A stretch of DNA of 36,266 nucleotides from an uncultured bacterium (GCA_903824515.1 CAIJXA010000079.1:1-36266); one strand, 5' to 3'. Numbered from the stretch's first letter, positions 7,397 to 32,847 are shown. The notes: a model not told the origin generated them from the letters alone. A program made the numbers and translations.

Positions 7397-7422
7397 TAAA
7401 TTAAAAAAATAATATTTTTTAA

Positions 7423-7535
7423 AATTTTCAATTCACAATTTTCAAATAATTTTCAATGAATTAATTTCAATCATTTAGTCATTTAGATTTTATTGAAAAT
7501 TGTGACTTGGAAATTGGAAATTACCGCGAAGCGGG
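7423..7535. repeat. Family C heptamer hairpin, secY-adk spacer, plus ccgcgaagcgg mini-hairpin
   Basis: aattttcaattcacaattttcaa...ttgaaaattgtgacttggaaattggaaatt. Confidence 0.7.
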
Positions 7536-8807
7536 CTAGAATCCTTCATAGTCACGCATCACCAATTGACCCTCAATTTGCTTAATTGTTTCAATCACGA
7601 CTGAAACAACGATTAGGATGCTGGTTCCACCAATTCGCAGTGTTTGAATATTAGTCATCCCTTGAATAATAAAAGGCAGAACTGCAATTGCGCCAAGAAA
7701 TAATGCGCCAGCTAAGGTTATCCTATTCATTATTTTATACAAATAATCTGCTGTATTTTTTCCCGGTCGAATCCCTGGAATATATCCTCCTTGTTTTTGA
7801 AGATTTTCAGAAATTTTCACTGGATCGAAAACAACTGCGGTATAAAAATATGTAAACAAAACAATCAAAACAAAATACATACTGCCATAAAAAAATTGAT
7901 TTTGAAACAAACTGTTAACGTTAGTTGCAATATGTGCCACTGTCTGATTGCTAGCTCGCATCAAAAAAGTCGCAATCATGCCAGGAAAAAGCATAATTGA
8001 CATTGCAAAAATAATTGGGATAACCCCAGCTTGATTAACTCGCAGTGGCAAGTGAGATGAAGCACCTCCATAGGTATTGTCGCCATGAACACGTTTTGCA
8101 TATGAAACGGCAATATTGCGCTGTCCTTCAGTAACTAAAACCACCCCAGCTATTGTTATCAGCATTACAACAAAAATAATAGCGTAAGTGAAAAATTGAG
8201 AAGAATCAAATGTCAAAAAAAGCTTCGAGATTGATGACGGCAAGCTACTCACAATGCCAGCAAAAATGATAAGTGAAACACCATTGCCAATTCCTTTTTC
8301 AGTGATAAGTTCACCCAACCACATAAGGAAAATAGTTCCGGTAGTGGCTATCAGAACAAGCACTGCTAAATTGAAAGGCGACAAAGTTCCAATAACGTTT
8401 TGCGATCGAAGCAAAGTAACTAAACCAAAAGTCTGCATTATCGCAAGCGGAACAGTGAGCCACCTAGTCCACATGTTGAATTTTTGCCTGCCAGCTTCAC
8501 CTTCTTCCTTATAAATCTGCTCTATACTAGGAACTATCATTGTCAAAAGCTGCATAATAATAGAAGCTGTGATATATGGACCGACTCCCAACATCACTAT
8601 TGAAATATTGGTCAAGCCTCCGCCGGAAAAAACATTCAGCATTCCAAGGAGCTGATTACCATCAAAAAGTCTCCTGAGCTGCTCCGTGTCAACACCCGGA
8701 AGTGGGATATTAGCTGCGATACGGAAAACAATAAGAACTCCAAAGATAAAAAGGATTTTATCGCGGAGTTCTCTTATTTTGAAAATTTGTGTTATTTTGT
8801 CCAACAT
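7536..8807 (-). CDS. secY: Preprotein translocase subunit SecY
   Basis: LGVGPYITASII, GIGNGVSLII, AGVIPIIFA, IPGIRPG, GGTSILIVV. Confidence 0.98.
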   Translation of the reverse strand: MLDKITQIFKIRELRDKILFIFGVLIVFRIAANIPLPGVDTEQLRRLFDGNQLLGMLNVFSGGGLTNISIVMLGVGPYITASIIMQLLTMIVPSIEQIYKEEGEAGRQKFNMWTRWLTVPLAIMQTFGLVTLLRSQNVIGTLSPFNLAVLVLIATTGTIFLMWLGELITEKGIGNGVSLIIFAGIVSSLPSSISKLFLTFDSSQFFTYAIIFVVMLITIAGVVLVTEGQRNIAVSYAKRVHGDNTYGGASSHLPLRVNQAGVIPIIFAMSIMLFPGMIATFLMRASNQTVAHIATNVNSLFQNQFFYGSMYFVLIVLFTYFYTAVVFDPVKISENLQKQGGYIPGIRPGKNTADYLYKIMNRITLAGALFLGAIAVLPFIIQGMTNIQTLRIGGTSILIVVSVVIETIKQIEGQLVMRDYEGF

Positions 8808-8827
8808 ATTAAGCAGATTCTTAGAAT

Positions 8828-8898
8828 TTAGCTTCTCAACTTTTCAGGAATACGTAGGTTTTCAGTTCTTTTCTAAAAAGCTAACGCCTAAGAAGCTA
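8828..8898. repeat. Family E hairpin (ttagcttct/agaagctaa), rplO-secY spacer
   Basis: ttagcttctcaacttttcaggaatacg...ctaaaaagctaacgcctaagaagcta; arms match those flanking the methyltransferase. Confidence 0.7.
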
Positions 8899-8902
8899 TT
8901 AA

Positions 8903-9340
8903 CTATTCCAGAATTTTTCCACCTGCTTTCATAATAGCATCTTTAGCAGTTTGTGAAAGTAGAAGTTCGCTGTTAATAGAAAGTTTTTTTGTAAGCTCCC
9001 CAGTTGATAAAATTTTTACACCATCCTTTGAGTCCTTCTTTGAAATAACTTTTGCAGCTACAAGAGTTTCAATCGAAATAACATCTCCGTTTTTAAAATT
9101 TTTCTCAAGATCGAAAATTTTCACCACTGTTTTCTTTGGAGTTCGAGATTTGAATCCTCGCACTTTCTTAAGACGTTCGGTTAGGGAAGATCTTCCTCCT
9201 TCAAACAAAGGGTCAATAGCTGCTCCAGATCTTGCTTTTTGACCTTTATTTCCACGACCTGAATATGTACCGCGTTTTCCTCCGCGACCAACGGTCTTTT
9301 TTGGTTTTCTCTTCTTGAGAGTAAGTTGATGAATTTGCAT
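8903..9340 (-). CDS. rplO: 50S ribosomal protein L15
   Basis: GRGGKRGTYSGRGNKGQKARSG, FEGG; synteny. Confidence 0.97.
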   Translation of the reverse strand: MQIHQLTLKKRKPKKTVGRGGKRGTYSGRGNKGQKARSGAAIDPLFEGGRSSLTERLKKVRGFKSRTPKKTVVKIFDLEKNFKNGDVISIETLVAAKVISKKDSKDGVKILSTGELTKKLSINSELLLSQTAKDAIMKAGGKILE

Positions 9341-9349
9341 ATGTTTATC

Positions 9350-9420
9350 GTTCTAATTGTTATAATTGTTCTATGCGTTCTAGTTGTTTTTTCGTTTACA
9401 ACAGTTACAACATTTAGAAC
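9350..9420 (-). repeat. Family A 9-mer-periodic hairpin, copy 1 (rpsE-rplO)
   Basis: gttctaattgttataattgtt...acaacagttacaacatttagaac; 5 homologous copies. Confidence 0.85.
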
Positions 9421-9430
9421 ATAACTACCT

Positions 9431-9976
9431 CTAAGCTTCTTTAGTAACCCCCTCTTTGGCTATTTCTTTAACAACTTCTTTTGCCACAACAACTTCGGTC
9501 TTAATCCTGGGTTCTTTCAAGCTTCGTAACGCCTCGATGGTTGCTCTAGCTACATTCAATTTATTTGAAGTCCCCAATGACTTAGAAACAATATCCCGAA
9601 TACCAACCAAATCAACTACAGCCCTAACTGCACCACCAGCAATAACCCCTCTTCCTTCCGGGGCCGGTTTCAAAAGAATTTTTGCACTGCCCATTTTCAT
9701 TTTAACATCATGGGGAATAGTGTTTGCGGATAGTTTAACCGTGATCATGCATTTTTTAGCATCATTATAGGCTTTCTGGATTGCATCAGAAACATCGGAT
9801 CCCTTTGCCACTCCGACACCAACCTGTCCTTTACGATTGCCAATCACGAGTGTTGCGCGAAAACGGAATCGCCTTCCACCCTTAACCACACGAGTAACTC
9901 TAGCCAAATCCAAAAGCTTCTGCTCAAATTCTGGCTTTTCTCTTCTTATTGGTTTTTTTCCTGATCTTTTGTCCAT
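9431..9976 (-). CDS. rpsE: 30S ribosomal protein S5
   Basis: RVTRVVKGGRRFRF, GVIAGGAVR. Confidence 0.98.
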   Translation of the reverse strand: MDKRSGKKPIRREKPEFEQKLLDLARVTRVVKGGRRFRFRATLVIGNRKGQVGVGVAKGSDVSDAIQKAYNDAKKCMITVKLSANTIPHDVKMKMGSAKILLKPAPEGRGVIAGGAVRAVVDLVGIRDIVSKSLGTSNKLNVARATIEALRSLKEPRIKTEVVVAKEVVKEIAKEGVTKEA

Positions 9977-9986
9977 AATATTATAA

Positions 9987-10078
9987 ATCTCTAATTAACG
10001 CTAATCTTATCACTAATTATCTCTGATGTTTTATAATTATTCGCGAACATTTGAGAAAATTCGAATCGATTCGCGATT
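9987..10078. repeat. Degenerate ~10-mer periodic hairpin, rplR-rpsE spacer
   Basis: ctaattaacgctaat...cactaatt / attcgcgaacatttgagaaaattcgaatcgattcgcg. Confidence 0.5.
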
Positions 10079-10085
10079 TATATCC

Positions 10086-10436
10086 TTAAAATTTGAGTCC
10101 GCCTTCTCGAGCACCATCCGCCAGTGCTTTAATTTTTCCATGGTATTGATATCCCGATCTGTCAAATGTTACAGTCTCAATCTTCAAAGCAAGGCATTTT
10201 TCCGCAATTAATTTTCCAACTGCCAATGATCCATCAATGGTATTTGAAGCCTTTTTGATTTCTGAAAGTTTTGCACTTGCAAGAGTTTTTCCAGAAATAT
10301 CATCAATAACCTGAGCATAAATCCCCTTTAAACTCTTAAAAACTGAGAGTCTTGGGCGCTCAGCGTTACCTGAAATTTTTGCGCGTACGCGACGCTTTCT
10401 TTGCAATCGATTGCTATTGTTGCTTATTTTTTTCAT
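10086..10436 (-). CDS. rplR: 50S ribosomal protein L18
   Basis: RPRLSVFKS, FDRSGYQYHGKIKALAD; start reset to ATG 10436. Confidence 0.97.
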   Translation of the reverse strand: MKKISNNSNRLQRKRRVRAKISGNAERPRLSVFKSLKGIYAQVIDDISGKTLASAKLSEIKKASNTIDGSLAVGKLIAEKCLALKIETVTFDRSGYQYHGKIKALADGAREGGLKF

Positions 10437-10442
10437 AATATA

Positions 10443-10510
10443 TCGTGAAACGTAGAGCGCGTAGCGTGAAGCGTTTTGCATTCCCACGTTATGCGTTATG
10501 CGTTATGCAA
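10443..10510. repeat. Family D-like heptamer hairpin, rplF-rplR spacer
   Basis: cgtgaaa cgtagag cgcgtag cgtgaag ... (cgttatg)x3. Confidence 0.75.
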
Positions 10511-10511
10511 T

Positions 10512-11048
10512 TTACTTCGATGATTTCTTTCCTTCTTTTCTTCTTACATGCTCTCCTACATATTTAAATCCCTTGCCTTTATATGGTTCTACAGGTTTAA
10601 GCGCTCTAATGTTCGCAGAAAATTGTCCCACCTCATGCTTATCAATACCCGAAACAGTCATCGTGTTTCCCTCAATCACAACTTCAATTCCGGTTGGAAT
10701 TTCAACCTCCACCGGATGAGAAAATCCAAGTGCAAGTGTAATTTTTCTTCCAGCTAGTGCCATACGAAAACCAACACCATTGAGTTCGAGTTGTTTTTTG
10801 AATCCAACTGTCACACCCTCAAACATGTTCCCAATAATTCTTGCAGTGGTACCCCAAATTGCCGGAGCATTTTTACCTTTACCAATCTTTTCAACAAGAA
10901 TATTTTCCGGGGTAATTTCAATAGCAACGTCCAAATGATGCTGAAAAGTAAGATTACCCTTTGGTCCCTTAACGGAAACCAAATTATTATCCACATTAAT
11001 AGTCACACCCTGCGGGATAACTATAGGTTTTTTTCCAATTCTACTCAT
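10512..11048 (-). CDS. rplF: 50S ribosomal protein L6
   Basis: MSRIGKKP, LGFSHPV, EPYKGKG. Confidence 0.98.
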   Translation of the reverse strand: MSRIGKKPIVIPQGVTINVDNNLVSVKGPKGNLTFQHHLDVAIEITPENILVEKIGKGKNAPAIWGTTARIIGNMFEGVTVGFKKQLELNGVGFRMALAGRKITLALGFSHPVEVEIPTGIEVVIEGNTMTVSGIDKHEVGQFSANIRALKPVEPYKGKGFKYVGEHVRRKEGKKSSK

Positions 11049-11060
11049 ACTATTTTTATC

Positions 11061-11130
11061 GTTCTAATTGTTATGATGTTTTGACATGTTCTAGTTGCAT
11101 CTCATCTACAACAATTACAACGATTAGAAC
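11061..11130 (-). repeat. Family A hairpin, copy 2 (rpsH-rplF)
   Basis: gttctaattgttatg...acaacaattacaacgattagaac. Confidence 0.85.
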
Positions 11131-11147
11131 ACTAGCACGTTTATTTA

Positions 11148-11552
11148 TTACCAAACTTCACAGATTATCTCCCCTCCTAAGCCTGATTTCTTTGCATTAT
11201 CTCCAGTCATCATGCCCCTTGAGGTAGAAACAATAGAAATTCCGTATCCGTTTTTAATTCTCTTTATATCAGTCTTTTTGACATAAATTCTCTGACCTTG
11301 TCTACTTACTCGTTTAATCTCTCTGATTGCCGGATTTTTTTCAGTATTCGAAATAACCTCATATCTTAAGGTTATTTTTAGCACTGGGAACTTATCCCCA
11401 TCTTCCTTCTTTACTGATTGGATAAAATTTCTTTGCTGCAAAATTTGAGCAATTGAATATTTTAATTTCGAAAACGGAACAGAAACTTCTTTATGTTTCG
11501 CTCGTTGTGCATTTCGAATTCTTGTAAGCATGTCTGCTATTGGATCTAACAT
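11148..11552 (-). CDS. rpsH: 30S ribosomal protein S8
   Basis: DPIADMLTRIRNA, STSRGMM, GGEIIC. Confidence 0.98.
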   Translation of the reverse strand: MLDPIADMLTRIRNAQRAKHKEVSVPFSKLKYSIAQILQQRNFIQSVKKEDGDKFPVLKITLRYEVISNTEKNPAIREIKRVSRQGQRIYVKKTDIKRIKNGYGISIVSTSRGMMTGDNAKKSGLGGEIICEVW

Positions 11553-11586
11553 ATTCTAATTCTTTATCCTAATTATATATAAATTA

Positions 11587-11663
11587 ACCGATACGAATCT
11601 ACGAATTAAATGCGAATCTACGAAACTTTTCGTATGTGCGCTTTCGTAGCGCGCTTTCGGATA
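11587..11663 (-). repeat. Family B rod-like element, copy 1 (rpsN-rpsH)
   Basis: accgatacgaatctacgaa...tgcgctttcgtagcgcgctttcggata; abuts the rpsN stop. Confidence 0.85.
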
Positions 11664-11849
11664 CTACCAACTACTCTTTTTAACTCCGGGCAATTCACCT
11701 TTGCTTGCTAACTCGCGAAAGCAAATTCTGCAAATATCAAATGCTCGAAGATAACCATGTTTTCGACCACAACGCCAACACCTTCGAACTTCTCGTGTCG
11801 AAAATTTTGGTTTCTTCTCTGCTCTAGCTTGGGTAGATGTTTTTGCCAT
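11664..11849 (-). CDS. rpsN: 30S ribosomal protein S14 (type Z)
   Basis: RCWRCGR...CRICFRE...GVKKSSW. Confidence 0.97.
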
Positions 11850-11866
11850 ATTTCTTTAGTCAATAC

Positions 11867-12415
11867 TTATTCGCTTTTTAGCGGAAATCCTAATAATTTA
11901 AATAATTCCAATCCTTGTTGCTGTGAAACTGCGCTTGTTGAGATTGTTACCTGAAGTCCGAAAGTATGCTTCACGCGTTCTGGGGAAATCTCGGGAAAAA
12001 TCAAATGTTCTCTTATTCCGATATTGATATTTCCGCTTGTATCAACTGACTTTCTCCCAATTCCCTGAAAATCTCGAGTTCTTGGAAGGGTTGCCACAAT
12101 CAATCTGTCGATGAATTGCCACATTCGAGCTCCTCGCAAAGTTACTTTCACACCAACTTCCATTCCTTCTCTAGTCTTGAAACCTGCGATAGCTTTCTTA
12201 GCTTTCGTTTTAACTGGTTTTTGTCCGGTAATTACAGTCAAAGAATTTACTACTTCCTCTATTTTATCATTTTCTTTCACAATCTTTCCAATGCCAACAT
12301 TGACCACGACTTTGAGAATTCGAGGCACCGCCATGACACTTTTATATCCGAATTTCTTTTGCATTTCAATTGCAACTGTCTTCGCATATTTTTCTTTTGC
12401 TGGAATTATTTTCAT
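11867..12415 (-). CDS. rplE: 50S ribosomal protein L5
   Basis: ITGQKP, KVTLRG, PRTRDFQG, IFPEI. Confidence 0.98.
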   Translation of the reverse strand: MKIIPAKEKYAKTVAIEMQKKFGYKSVMAVPRILKVVVNVGIGKIVKENDKIEEVVNSLTVITGQKPVKTKAKKAIAGFKTREGMEVGVKVTLRGARMWQFIDRLIVATLPRTRDFQGIGRKSVDTSGNINIGIREHLIFPEISPERVKHTFGLQVTISTSAVSQQQGLELFKLLGFPLKSE

Positions 12416-12425
12416 ATAATTTATC

Positions 12426-12495
12426 GCTCTAATTGTTATAATTGTTCTATGCGTTCTAGTTGTCTTTCATTTATAACATTTACAACAGTTAGAAC
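12426..12495 (-). repeat. Family A hairpin, copy 3 (rplX-rplE)
   Basis: gctctaattgttataattgttctatgcgttctagttg...tacaacagttagaac. Confidence 0.85.
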
Positions 12496-12507
12496 ATTAA
12501 AACGTTT

Positions 12508-12813
12508 CTAGATTTCCTTGCCACATTTCTTACAAACACGTACTTTTTTTTCTTTAACAAAAGCATAGGATGTTCTCGTTGCTTTACCACATGAAGGGCA
12601 AATCAACATTGCATTTGAAGCATCAAATGGGGCTGCTATTTCAACTCGCTGTCCCTTCTCACCCTCCCTGCGAGCTTTTTTGTGCTTCTTTACAATATTC
12701 ATTTTTTCGACTACAATTTTTCCCTCGCTCGGAACAGTTCGCAAGACTTTTCCCTGCTTACCCTTGTCCTTTCCGGCAATTTTTTTTACGAGGTCTCCTT
12801 TTTTAATTCTCAT
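12508..12813 (-). CDS. rplX: 50S ribosomal protein L24
   Basis: IKKGD..IAGKDKGKQG KOW motif. Confidence 0.97.
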   Translation of the reverse strand: MRIKKGDLVKKIAGKDKGKQGKVLRTVPSEGKIVVEKMNIVKKHKKARREGEKGQRVEIAAPFDASNAMLICPSCGKATRTSYAFVKEKKVRVCKKCGKEI

Positions 12814-12824
12814 AATATTTTAGC

Positions 12825-12897
12825 GTTCTAATTGTTATAATTGATCTACTTGTTCTAGTTGTTTTCACTCACTTATAACAATTACAACAGTTAGAAC
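12825..12897 (-). repeat. Family A hairpin, copy 4 (rplN-rplX)
   Basis: gttctaattgttataattg...tataacaattacaacagttagaac. Confidence 0.85.
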
Positions 12898-12908
12898 ATT
12901 ATTTCAGT

Positions 12909-13274
12909 CTACAATACTTCCGGTGCCAATGAAACTATTTTAGCAAATCCTTTTTCACGAAGCTCCCTAGCTATTGGTCCGAAAATACGAGTTCCTTTTG
13001 GTTCCTTACCATCAACAATCACAGCAGCATTTTCATCAAAACGAATATATGAACCATCTTTTCTTCTATAAGCCTTTCTCTGTCTGACTACAACTGCTCG
13101 AATCTTATCTCCCTTTTTAACTAAGCCTCTTGGTTCAGCTGATTTTACACTGCAAACAATAATATCACCAACGTAGGCGTAACGTCTGCGACTGCCACCA
13201 AGAATCTTGAAGCATTCGATTACTTTTGCTCCCGAATTGTCTGCTGCTCTTAATCTTGTTTCTGCCTGAATCAT
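12909..13274 (-). CDS. rplN: 50S ribosomal protein L14
   Basis: [21 protein letters not shown]. Confidence 0.98.
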
Positions 13275-13283
13275 ATAGTTTTT

Positions 13284-13343
13284 GTTCTAATTATTATAAT
13301 TGTGCTACACGTTCTATCTGTTTTCATTTACAACAATCAGAAC
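13284..13343 (-). repeat. Family A hairpin, copy 5 (rpsQ-rplN), one unit shorter
   Basis: gttctaattattataattgtgctacacgttcta...tacaacaatcagaac. Confidence 0.8.
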
Positions 13344-13348
13344 GACGT

Positions 13349-13588
13349 TTATGCTAATGTGTGATTTTTATCCTTGCTCAATGGCCGACACTGCACAAAT
13401 TCTACCGAATCTCCAATCTTGTGCTTATTTTCACTATCATGAACCTTGTATTTTTTGGTTGAGCGATACTTTTTCAGGTATTTTGGATGAGTTTTAAGAG
13501 ACTGCACAGCAACAACTATAGTCTTATCCATTGAGTCACTTACAACCTTACCCTTTTTCGTTGCTAATTTTTTAGTAGTGTTTGTCAT
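13349..13588 (-). CDS. rpsQ: 30S ribosomal protein S17
   Basis: GKVVSDSMDKTIVV, HPKY, CRPLSKDK. Confidence 0.97.
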   Translation of the reverse strand: MTNTTKKLATKKGKVVSDSMDKTIVVAVQSLKTHPKYLKKYRSTKKYKVHDSENKHKIGDSVEFVQCRPLSKDKNHTLA

Positions 13589-13828: not shown

Positions 13829-13837
13829 ATAATTATA

Positions 13838-13912
13838 ACCGATACGAAACTATGAATTTAGTGCGAATTTACGAAATTTCTAATGTGCGCTTTCGTAGTG
13901 CGCTTTCGGATA
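13838..13912 (-). repeat. Family B element, copy 2 (rplP-rpmC)
   Basis: accgatacgaaactatgaa...tgcgctttcgtagtgcgctttcggata; abuts the rplP stop. Confidence 0.85.
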
Positions 13913-15022: not shown

Positions 15023-15027
15023 ATCTT

Positions 15028-15140
15028 ATTTCAATTTCTAATTTCTAATTTCTAATTTCTAAACAATTTCTAATTTCAAAATTTTAAAATTGAAACATTG
15101 AAAATTGATTGAAAATTGAAAATTGAAAATTGAAAATTTT
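15028..15140. repeat. Family C heptamer hairpin (aatttct)n...(ttgaaaa)n, rplV-rpsC spacer
   Basis: Tandem aatttct units facing tandem ttgaaaa units; nearly identical to 24751-24866. Confidence 0.85.
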
Positions 15141-15214
15141 ACACTCTCTTTTTAATTAAAATTAAACTACAACAATACACTATAAATTATTCACAAATAC
15201 ATTTAACAACTATA

Positions 15215-16207: not shown

Positions 16208-16215
16208 ATTTTTTT

Positions 16216-16293
16216 ACCGATACGAATCTACGAATTAATTACAAATCTACGAAATTTTTCGAATGGGCGCTTTTGTGGTGCGCTTTTCGGATG
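16216..16293 (-). repeat. Family B element, copy 3 (rplB-rpsS)
   Basis: accgatacgaatctacgaattaa...gtgcgcttttcggatg; abuts the rplB stop. Confidence 0.85.
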
Positions 16294-18891: not shown

Positions 18892-18918
18892 ATCTGTAAT
18901 TATACTTATATTTCGAAC

Positions 18919-19000
18919 AAAAAACTGGCTTCTCAGCCAGCATGGTCCGAGGAGCAATTCCTCGACTTAGCTAATTGAGTATCCAACTTTGCAGTAGGAC
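18919..19000 (-). promoter_or_regulatory. Structured rplC leader ending in an intrinsic terminator (candidate attenuator)
   Basis: Hairpins UCCUACU-GCAA-AGUUGGA, GAGGA-AUUGC-UCCUC and CUGGCU-GAGA-AGCCAG-U6. Confidence 0.6.
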
Positions 19001-19034
19001 TTTAACTAGTTTTTTTCTTTTTTCTAACTTATCT

Positions 19035-19063
19035 ATTTTAAATCAATTCTCAAATTTATGCAA
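19035..19063 (-). promoter_or_regulatory. Sigma70-like promoter upstream of rplC
   Basis: TTGCAT-17 nt-TAAAAT. Confidence 0.55.
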
Positions 19064-19067
19064 GCCC

Positions 19068-19143
19068 CGACGATATTTACCATTCAAACATACCTACTAA
19101 TTTGTGATTCGTATGGTAGCTTTCGTAGTACGCCTTTTACATG
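19068..19143 (-). repeat. Family B element, diverged copy 4 (after rpsJ)
   Basis: ttcgtatggtagctttcgtagtacgccttttacatg abutting the rpsJ stop. Confidence 0.55.
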
Positions 19144-24084: not shown

Positions 24085-24092
24085 AAAAAATT

Positions 24093-24204
24093 AATTTCTA
24101 ATTTCTAATTTCTAATTTCTAATCAAATTCCAATATTCCAATGTTCAAAACATGCAGGAATTCAAAATTTATTCAAAATTCAAAATTCAAAATTCAAAAT
24201 TTTA
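24093..24204. repeat. Family C heptamer hairpin, rpsG-fusA spacer
   Basis: (aatttct)x4...(ttcaaaa)x4. Confidence 0.8.
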
Positions 24205-24273
24205 ATATTATTTTTTTTGATTATAAAACAAAGATAGAAACCCCAAACTAGCAGGAGTTTCTATCGCAAGAAT

Positions 24274-24741: not shown

Positions 24742-24750
24742 ATTTTCCTT

Positions 24751-24866
24751 AATTTCTAATTTCTAATTTCTAATTTCTAAATAATTTCTAATGCTTTAAT
24801 TTCAAAATTGAAAATTTAAACATTTTAAAATTGATTGAAAATTGAAAATTGAAAATTGAAAATTTT
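24751..24866. repeat. Family C heptamer hairpin, rpsL-rpsG spacer
   Basis: (aatttct)x4...(ttgaaaa)x4. Confidence 0.85.
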
Positions 24867-24929
24867 AAGCCCTAATCTTTAATTATAATCTTATTTAATT
24901 CAAATAATTCTCTTAAATCTGCGACAGAA

Positions 24930-25352: not shown

Positions 25353-25367
25353 ATTACGCTTCGCTTT

Positions 25368-25440
25368 AATTTCTAATTTCTAATTTCTAATTTCTAATCA
25401 ATTTTCAATGATTAAATTTCAAAAACCAAAATTGAAAAAT
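25368..25440. repeat. Family C heptamer element in the rpsL 5' leader
   Basis: (aatttct)x4 aatcaattttcaatg...aaattgaaaa. Confidence 0.75.
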
Positions 25441-25560
25441 ATAAGTTCATTTTTAAATTAAGCATAGCCTGCTGGAAATCCGTCCAGAACGAAACGGACC
25501 TCAATTGACTACTTTCTAAAACAAAACAGCCAAAAAATTGGCTACTTGACTAACAAAAGT

Positions 25561-25589
25561 AGTTTACCTAACTTTTGCAAATATGTCAA
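25561..25589 (-). promoter_or_regulatory. str operon (rpsL) promoter
   Basis: TTGACA-17 nt-TAAACT. Confidence 0.7.
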
Positions 25590-25683
25590 ACGAAGTGCTT
25601 GTTAATTAATACTTAATTTGTAATCACACTATGATTGCAAGTTACTATTATATTTGAAAAGAGATAATAAGCGAAAAAATGAT

Positions 25684-32776: not shown

Positions 32777-32847
32777 TCGGGATGCGGGGAATTGAACCCA
32801 GGCTACAAGACCCCTGGCCTTGCGTACTGCCATTATACTACATCCTG
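32777..32847 (-). tRNA. tRNA-Pro, atypical (anticodon AGG in standard register; no encoded CCA)
   Basis: CAGGATG-TA-GTAT-AATGGCA-GTAC-G-CAAGG-CCAGGGG-TCTTG-TAGC-CTGGG-TTCAATT-CCCCG-CATCCCG-A; C1:G72, A73, G35, G36. Confidence 0.8.

Follow-up and report, generated by a model that had tools for sequence, protein, structure and literature searches.

Hairpin repeats are carried on the mRNAs of several bacteria, such as the Correia elements of Neisseria, the ERIC sequences of enterobacteria and the Rickettsia palindromic elements, and some of them are reported to have orientation-dependent effects or to undergo RNase processing. In the ribosomal-protein operons of Escherichia coli, translational coupling is mediated by secondary structure, in the form of single, conserved, gene-specific structures that often hide the Shine-Dalgarno (SD) site. 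In this study, we analysed five hairpin repeats, named Family A, in the spc operon of an uncultured bacterium (GCA_903824515.1, CAIJXA010000079.1:1-36266; this whole stretch of 36,266 nucleotides is called the window). Like the E. coli coupling stem-loops, hairpins of this class place a helix between a stop codon and the next start codon in the spc and S10 operons, where a terminating ribosome would meet it; unlike them, they are repeated cassettes, interchangeable between species, that leave an SD-less leader free. The class shares with the Rickettsia elements the ability to sit in frame within a gene, as two trmD cases illustrate, but differs from the Correia, ERIC and Rickettsia elements in its periodic words, in showing no consistent signature of terminal inverted repeats with target duplication, in lacking a dispersed high copy number, and in being limited to operons for ribosomal proteins and some other housekeeping functions.

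The repetitive extragenic palindromic (REP) sequences of E. coli and Pseudomonas, with the related BIME and REPIN-RAYT systems (PMC3116915; PMC3337134), are 20-40-nt imperfect palindromes with many dispersed extragenic copies, one end of which bears a conserved tetranucleotide, GTAG or CGTC (PMC3733652); when they lie no more than 15 nt from a stop codon, they are reported to make ribosomes stall and to reduce translation (PMC12306157). Family A resembles them in forming imperfect palindromes in intra-operon spacers close behind stop codons (REPs are co-transcribed with the genes), in starting at most 15 nt after the stop codon in 4 of its 5 copies, and in that families turn over between related genomes. 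Unlike REPs, Family A elements are ~70 nt rather than 20-40 nt long, consist of 9-nt tandem words, number five in one locality where REPs are dispersed in their hundreds, have no cognate RAYT and lack the GTAG/CGTC tag as a family feature, only one of the five copies carrying it (the tetranucleotides that precede the 5' arms read TTAT, TAGT, TAAT, TAAT and CGTC). Intergenic direct repeats of the heptamer TAACTGA have been reported from Beggiatoaceae, Cyanobacteria and Bacteroidetes, with a translational role that was proposed but is not known to have been tested (MacGregor 2015, PMC4679880). These repeats and ours are alike in being phylogenetically patchy, short-unit arrays right upstream of start codons, including those of ribosomal-protein operons; the TAACTGA repeats are copies of one exact heptamer with no partner array, whereas ours are imperfect 9-mers with an inverted partner, a covarying hairpin and many word families. 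Long simple-sequence repeats have units of 5-11 nt (Mrazek 2007, as cited in PMC4679880). Family A likewise consists of head-to-tail units of this size in non-coding DNA, but its direct arrays do not stand alone: every one of them has an inverted counterpart opposite it, with covarying pairs between the two.

Our search of open-access PMC and bioRxiv found no literature on such repeats in the Candidate Phyla Radiation (CPR), and no printed match was found for the combination of tandem 9-nt words, a covarying inverted array, sense orientation, a preference for ribosomal-protein operons, cassette turnover and a CPR lineage. The reading that we favour, with a probability of roughly 45%, is that Family A elements are replaceable repeat cassettes that must fold while present, most likely on the operon mRNA, where they would hold stop and start codons close together and keep an SD-less leader open. 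The anatomy, distribution, covariation, conservation, orientation and turnover are observed here; transcription, folding in vivo and any effect on expression are inferred.

Five hairpins of 9-nt words in the spc operon

Family A comprises five co-oriented hairpins of ~70 nt each, built of 9-nt words and lying in spacers of the spc operon on the - (mRNA) strand:

8903..13588, - strand: spc-operon segment with all five copies (L15, S5, L18, L6, S8, S14, L5, L24, L14, S17; no L30)
9350-9420, - strand: copy 1, in the S5 (rpsE)-L15 (rplO) spacer; three 5' words, four 3' words
9341..9349, - strand: tail of copy 1, a 9-nt A/U-rich leader, GAUAAACAU, before the L15 AUG, without a Shine-Dalgarno motif
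11061-11130, - strand: copy 2, in the S8 (rpsH)-L6 (rplF) spacer; the most diverged of the five
12426-12495, - strand: copy 3, in the L24 (rplX)-L5 (rplE) spacer; AGAGC variant giving a U-G pair
12825-12897, - strand: copy 4, in the L14 (rplN)-L24 (rplX) spacer
13284-13343, - strand: copy 5, in the S17 (rpsQ)-L14 (rplN) spacer; short, with only two 5' words
11049-11060, 12416-12425, 12814-12824 and 13275-13283, - strand: equivalent stem-to-AUG leaders of copies 2-5
9350-9370, 9395-9422, 11107-11131, 12468-12498, 12825-12863 and 12873-12898: period-9 calls of Tandem Repeats Finder

The initial annotation, made from the sequence alone, had proposed five co-oriented, 9-mer-periodic hairpins starting at 9350, 11061, 12426, 12825 and 13284, and the coordinates, the strand and the Tandem Repeats Finder results bore this out: the program called period 9 in both arms, with 2.3-4.3 copies of units that were only 80-90% alike. 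On the mRNA the family reads GUUCUAAnU GUUGUAAnU GUUGUAAAn ... CAACUAGAA CGCAUAGAA CAAUUAUAA CAAUUAGAAC. The general anatomy of the class is a 70-100-nt element of 9-nt words with GUUNNAAnU in the 5' arm and nAnUUNNAAC in the 3' arm, in which GUU and AAC, the constant triplets, pair with each other, covariation is seen in the variable core, and position eight of each word is usually unpaired. The arms are asymmetric (three words versus four to five), and copy 5 has one 5' word fewer than the others.

Copies 2, 3 and 4 had model scores of 83.2, 99.5 and 93.6 bits; for copy 1, nhmmer gave 69.2 bits and the second score was 97.9 bits, and for copy 5 the corresponding values were 52.4 and 44.9 bits. 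The pattern GTTCTAANNGTTGTAA, with at most one mismatch, had eight matches in the window, while dinucleotide shuffles averaged 0.02 and none of 100 reached eight. The folding energies of copies 1-5 on the mRNA strand were -20.0, -21.1, -17.6, -20.0 and -17.1 kcal/mol, with z values of -2.9 to -4.5 against shuffles, copy 1 having the value of -4.5. When the sequences were re-read, the distance from the last paired C to the AUG was 9, 12, 10, 11 and 9 nt in copies 1-5, the same as first annotated; the distance from the stop codon to the first paired G was 10, 17, 12, 11 and 5 nt. Two finer points of that annotation were likewise found in the sequences: the G-U pair (GUUGUAA versus UUAUAAC) is present in copies 1-4, and also in 9 of 9 sequences of alignment A3, and the AGAGC change in copy 3 does yield a U-G pair on the mRNA strand.

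Covariation and conservation of the stem

Pairing was analysed in 18 sequences from 10 genomes (21 pairs, 377 cells, 500 shuffles), among which kin are not independent. Paired cells made up 90.2% of the total, compared with a shuffled mean of 86.5% that in none of the 500 shuffles rose to the observed value, and with 30-50% when the partners were slid by 1-3 columns. Changes on both sides occurred in 7 of 21 pairs (shuffled mean 3.6, observed value reached by 10 of 500 shuffles), and 14 cells had changed on both sides where 4.9 were expected (0 of 500 shuffles). Column conservation in Family A was 0.964 for paired and 0.830 for unpaired columns, and over the 18 sequences GUU and AAC were nearly invariant.

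The spacers were also compared with neutral sites. Hereafter G000 is the genome under study, in which the window is contig C79, and other G-numbers are its relatives. At fourfold sites, G000 and G005 are 59.9% identical (n=1407), while their orthologous Family A spacers are identical at 92/92, 77/81, 84/97, 78/94 and 64/73 aligned positions (83-100%), the 92/92 being the L24-L5 spacer with copy 3. A spacer of G042, which belongs to another genus and has 45% identity with G000 at 111 fourfold sites, matches copy 1 at 85 of 89 positions. An unchanged block of 120 nt spans the L24-L5 spacer, and its coding flanks differ at ~16% of positions; from this block one cannot tell whether every base is constrained or a cassette was recently exchanged between species, as the two fit equally well. 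These comparisons support the view that the pairing is probably held by purifying selection while a copy is present. The claim that selection acts on RNA structure therefore stood in one part, the hairpin being selected according to covariation and paired-column conservation, and did not stand in the other, since the pair types do not single out the RNA strand.

It is very improbable that these arrays arose by pure replication slippage, as long simple-sequence repeats do, with pairing left unselected. Tandem arrays of period 7, 8 and 9 are enriched in the 183 kb of intergenic sequence (137, 120 and 37 versus 10, 15 and 13 after shuffling) and word number varies between copies, in keeping with slippage; but slippage yields direct repeats and not matched inverted arrays, and the covariation, the excess of paired cells and the conservation above fourfold sites all argue against it.

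Conservation of the sequence itself, the near invariance of GUU/AAC, the 85/89 match of the G042 copy to copy 1, the strict 9-nt spacing and the association with ribosomal-protein operons could also be explained if the 9-nt words were an array of sites for a sequence-specific protein, involved in ribosomal-protein feedback or another RNA- or DNA-binding factor, with the hairpin serving for presentation. Congeneric species with 90-98% identical ribosomal proteins, however, have unrelated words or nothing at the equivalent sites, which makes a conserved protein partner unlikely. In addition, there is no candidate protein, no ribosomal-protein leader was found in 9200-13500 with Rfam 15 (0 matches at E <= 1), and a 9-nt period suits neither the A-form nor the B-form helical repeat. 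We give this explanation only a small chance.

Orientation and strand

Of the five copies in G000, four had the better fold energy on the mRNA strand (for instance, -17.6 versus -12.6 kcal/mol antisense in copy 3 and -17.1 versus -7.4 kcal/mol in copy 5); over three species this was so for 7 of 11 copies, with about three equal and one better antisense. Genome-wide, the sense strand folded better in 346 and the antisense strand in 154 of 581 co-directional spacers; internal G-U pairs numbered 1760 in sense and 1132 in antisense folds, compared with 572 versus 536 in control spacers. All 13 Family A copies are in sense orientation (13/13), and because all of them lie in one operon, their orientations are not independent. 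Outside the genus, 11 class members were clearly sense and six more were sense with a weak strand call, against two antisense, which were weak matches; further copies lay in frame inside trmD (two), in convergent spacers (two) and in a divergent spacer (one). The one-sided p for 11 of 13 in sense is 0.011. Equal numbers in the two orientations, which the initial annotation had named as the outcome that would speak against RNA-level selection, were thus not found, either outside the genus or in Family A. Arm asymmetry and orientation point to a constraint that would act at the transcript level.

Leaders, start codons and the proposed mechanism

SD-like 4-mers precede only 12.7% of 939 genes in this genome. 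No 16S gene was found in the G000 metagenome-assembled genome (MAG), and the 16S 3' tail of two sister species carries the canonical CCUCC. Leaders are A-rich, with ATAAA as the most enriched 5-mer at -25..-1 of 1010 genes. Most copies are followed by an 8-12-nt A/U-rich tail without a Shine-Dalgarno motif, and the 9-12 nt before the AUG consist largely of a conserved tail, GAUAAA, that is part of the element itself; in other genomes, two copies come to within 3-4 nt of the AUG. For 225 strong hairpins genome-wide, the gap had a median of 10 nt at the 5' end and 13 nt at the 3' end, and in 57 of them fewer than 6 nt separated the hairpin's end and the called start. The proposal that selection leaves an unstructured window for initiation accordingly survives in part: most copies do leave such a tail, but the tail belongs to the element, the 3-4-nt cases do not fit and the genome-wide effect is mild.

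We propose that the element would be transcribed within the polycistronic ribosomal-protein mRNA, where its folding would turn a spacer that is otherwise long into a compact helix. With the stop codon 5-17 nt upstream of the stem and the next AUG 9-12 nt downstream, the two codons would be drawn near each other, and the A/U-rich, SD-less leader would remain single-stranded. Translation from cistron to cistron would be preserved in this way, and the 3' side of the upstream cistron could be shielded. The element may or may not bring a benefit over an empty spacer, and the constraint may mean only that an unfolded insert would be harmful.

Other signals were considered for these spacers and rejected. 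The region contains seven promoter-like sites versus 12.6 after shuffling, none of them within a copy on the mRNA strand, and two terminator-like sites versus 2.4, both on the + strand outside the copies, whose tails read GAUAAA. The 3'-arm core AAUUAG(A/G) is not supported as an SD-like signal, TTAGRR being present at -30..-1 in just 62 of 1010 genes and the 16S tail being the canonical CCUCC. As a separate observation, the leader AUAAUUAGGAUAAAGAAUUAGAAU before the S8 start (11553-11576) is conserved nearly base for base across the genus and two other genera, and the 3' arms of four different hairpin families contain the AAUUAG(A/G) core of this S8 leader.

Evidence bearing against action on the mRNA

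The following observations, together with the kinship among the aligned sequences, weigh against cassettes acting on the operon mRNA. G-U cells outnumbered A-C cells by 24 to 13, but the counts were 12 and 13 without column 21/83. As G-U equals A-C outside this one fixed column, the pairing data do not single out the RNA strand; the conserved G-U pair, put forward earlier as strand evidence, is a single inherited column, and the bias of G-U over A-C proposed as a test vanishes outside it. Where the periodic mismatches fall, C-A combinations occur that would form pairs on the opposite strand. Copy 1 folds equally well in antisense and sense (-20.5 versus -20.0 kcal/mol), and the S17-L14 copy of G005 folds better in antisense (-20.9 versus -14.3 kcal/mol). 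On contigs of mixed orientation, sense:antisense ratios were 150:59 for genes in the majority orientation and 25:27 for those in the minority. The fourfold-site GC skew (-0.02 versus -0.18) reveals a replication-linked component, and fourfold-site and spacer skews put it at about half of the genome-wide sense advantage, so that orientation could follow replication instead of transcription. Identity over whole spacers, loops included, is explained equally well by recent exchange between species and by selection, and empty spacers at orthologous sites imply that the hairpin is unneeded at a given site. The predicted accessibility of the start region in the five copies, 0.32-0.70, is unremarkable and lacks a control, and the gene calls beyond those checked with Pfam are crude open reading frame (ORF) calls. 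Copy numbers are lower bounds because the repeats break MAG assemblies. Finally, contigs assembled from RNA libraries, in which DNA may be present, run across copies 2, 4 and 5 and end inside copies 1 and 3; DNA contigs also end in these two copies, which indicates assembly breaks, so that neither transcription nor processing can be read from these contigs.

The bridging of copies 2, 4 and 5 bears also on whether the hairpins are sites at which RNase III, or another endonuclease, releases single-gene mRNAs by cutting the operon transcript. The genome has a gene for RNase III (C119:2482-2865, 146.8 bits), and the helices of ~21 pairs with single mismatches stand at cistron borders, as such sites might. 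Nevertheless, RNA-library contigs run through these three copies, equivalent sites can be occupied by empty spacers, and the helices are A-U rich with a mismatch every 9 nt, which may or may not suit RNase III; we regard this role as quite improbable.

Turnover between species and distribution of the class

Across six genomes of the genus, each orthologous spacer was either shared (0.82-1.00 identity), unrelated (~0.5) or empty (13-20 nt). Examples of filled and empty spacers are:

S17-L14 spacer: 74 nt here; 13-16 nt in G003, by two ways of marking the spacer
L4-L23 spacer: 20 nt here; 102 nt in G006
L5-S14 spacer: 17 nt here (11850-11866); 166-170 nt in three species
S3-L16 spacer: 42 nt here; 92-119 nt elsewhere

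Sharing was mosaic, in that some spacers match G003 and not G005 while adjacent ones show the reverse, and Family A sites carry other tandem-word families in other species. Judging from these alignments, cassettes are replaced quickly between congeneric species. The L5-S14 spacer of G005 (L136), G001 (L138), G002 (L139) and G014 (L018), another genus being included, was further seen to hold a conserved element of 166-188 nt with folding energies of -48 to -64 kcal/mol.

In the 1.26-Mb genome, nhmmer found full-length Family A only as the five copies on C79, all in one operon; outside the spc operon there are just stray arrays of the Family A word. Within the genus, G005 has five copies and G001 two, all in the spc operon and all in sense, and four other species have none. 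Among 33 genomes of the family searched, G042 has a single copy, located at S8-L6 and flanked as copy 2 is, so that the copy 2 site is occupied in G005 and G042 as well. A covariance model, R2, built from 18 sequences (grammar GUUNNAAnU ... UUNNAAC), gave matches at E <= 0.001 in 14 of the order's 151 genomes; two weak matches, G123:C5:12050 and G087:C60:2843, were left out of the examined set, and an R1 search of 22 genomes around G123 yielded nothing new. For 7 of the 17 sense copies outside the genus, the gene that follows directly is a ribosomal-protein gene confirmed by Pfam (S4, L24, L6 twice, S19 twice and S8), a binomial p of 2e-5 against a background of 5.5% that is our own estimate. 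A 55-aa ORF after the match at L191 resembles L28, to which we presume it corresponds. The class consists of intercistronic stem-loops that occur throughout the Moranbacteria order, and Family A forms a local branch of it that does not extend beyond the spc operon; the wider class is one of gene-boundary hairpins that turn over rapidly and whose function is putative. Hairpins of the class also occur in frame within trmD at L165:1490-1576 and L167:1501-1584, in genomes of two other families, and the Pfam domain tRNA_m1G_MT spans the insert.

This turnover would be expected if the elements were selfish or near-neutral miniature palindromes of the REP/REPIN, miniature inverted-repeat transposable element (MITE) or Rickettsia palindromic kind, which would matter as single-stranded DNA, be tolerated by the mRNA and owe their orientation to insertion that is strand-specific relative to replication; an HUH Y1 transposase could copy them, or else template switching and short-patch recombination. 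Presence, absence and family replacement are seen between species with 90-98% identical proteins, and of 788 spacers, 212 resemble some other spacer over 40 nt or more and fall into 32 clusters, classical inverted-repeat elements among them. The median spc spacer is ~100 nt in the genus and a few relatives and 15-30 nt in most other bacteria sampled, and genomes of the genus are larger (1.1-1.4 Mb) than those of many relatives with such short spacers (0.8-0.9 Mb). The two in-frame trmD copies, the presence of Y1_Tnp genes (matches on C112, C78 and C19), the equality of G-U and A-C outside one column, the replication-linked skew and the identical 120-nt block, which suggests exchange, all fit the same explanation. 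On the other hand, Family A has only five copies in one operon, with none outside the spc operon in three genomes; the REP tag is seen in only one of the five; and 7 of the 17 copies lie upstream of ribosomal-protein genes. The arms are inverted repeats, as in a MITE, but no consistent flanking direct repeat was found in the five copies or in comparisons of filled with empty sites, the flanks being so A/T-rich that short target duplications could be hidden, and no further profile match in the 1.26-Mb genome pointed to a longer autonomous element with Family A ends. No Family A copy is near any Y1 gene, and conservation is far above that of fourfold sites while the coding flanks are not elevated. 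Taken together, we consider a selfish origin unlikely, though a serious contender.

A RAYT link was rejected for Family A, as none of the Y1 contigs C112, C78 and C19 has a match and the C78 gene has a palindrome of its own. The C78 gene itself is a RAYT-like Y1 gene (G000:C78:16570-17140, L112) in a classical REP/RAYT arrangement, with an N-terminal part that is apparently disrupted and a flanking 32-nt perfect palindrome that has 8-9 copies in the genome and is unlike Family A. A second, broken RAYT-like copy is found on C19, and an IS200-like TnpA at C112:9363-9815.

If replaceable cassettes do act on the mRNA, they would show how an operon is translated in a lineage that hardly uses Shine-Dalgarno sequences and would offer a compact natural 'insulator' part. 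It is rather unlikely, though worth keeping in view, that they form an undescribed class of RNA element across this Moranbacteria order, a modular cistron boundary that organizes SD-independent translation and perhaps mRNA survival in ribosomal-protein operons, is kept in sense by selection on the transcript and passes between species as a cassette through the highly conserved flanking genes. If they are selfish, repeat invasion and cassette exchange would reach even ultra-small genomes and the core translation genes. CPR genomes are among the smallest and most streamlined, yet in this genus almost all spacers in the most highly conserved block of operons hold a hairpin of ~100 nt. In practice, the hairpins break MAG assemblies at ribosomal-protein operons and are potential fine-scale strain markers.

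Host genome and other repeats in the window

The sequence comes from a MAG of 1.26 Mb in 137 contigs, with 38% G+C and 99% completeness, and related records are named Candidatus Moranbacteria or Moraniibacteriota (Parcubacteria group, CPR). The genes of the window are all on the - strand and form the str/S10/spc/alpha block; Pfam confirmed SecY, L15, S5, L18, L6, S8, S14, L5, L24, L14 and S17 in 7536-13588. L30 is not known from CPR bacteria, and Ribosomal_L30 had no match in this 99%-complete genome, against a match in 13 of the 14 control genomes. The S5-L15 spacer occupied by copy 1 is thus an ordinary one in a lineage without L30, and the copy is no relic of rpmD; the remark that it sits where rpmD normally lies has no meaning here.

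A tandem-word hairpin of some family, with words of 7-9 nt, is found in nearly every spacer of the window. The GCGAAGC-type loop motif seen in other genomes is not enriched here (9 matches versus 19 for the reversed control). A period-7 hairpin family is present at 15023-15214, 24085-24273, 24742-24929, 25353-25683 and 7397-7535, in which a 5' arm (UUUUCAA)n pairs with a 3' arm (UUAGAAA)n through U-G wobbles; it forms a genome-wide cluster of 37 spacers and folds far more stably on the mRNA strand (e.g., -40.7 versus -24.6 kcal/mol), and 3 of 3 hairpins are in sense, too few to be used. A dispersed family with words of the CGAAAGCGC type versus UUCGUAGAUUCGUAUCGG lies at 11553-11663, 13829-13912, 16208-16293 and 18892-19143 and on contigs C129, C37, C87 and C60. 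Further word families are located at 9977-10085 (S5-L18) and 10437-10511 (L18-L6), and the S5-L18 family (AAUCGCGAAUCG... / ...AUUAGAGAU) occupies most of the compared spc spacers of the sister species G002. Many spacers also contain a classical inverted-repeat mini-element of ~100 nt (UGUCAUCCUGAACUUGUUUCAGGAUC ... GAUGCUGAAACAAGUUCAGCAUGACA), for example at C12:2838-2957 and C130:8641-8765. The sole Rfam match in the window is a single tRNA gene at 32777-32847 on the - strand.

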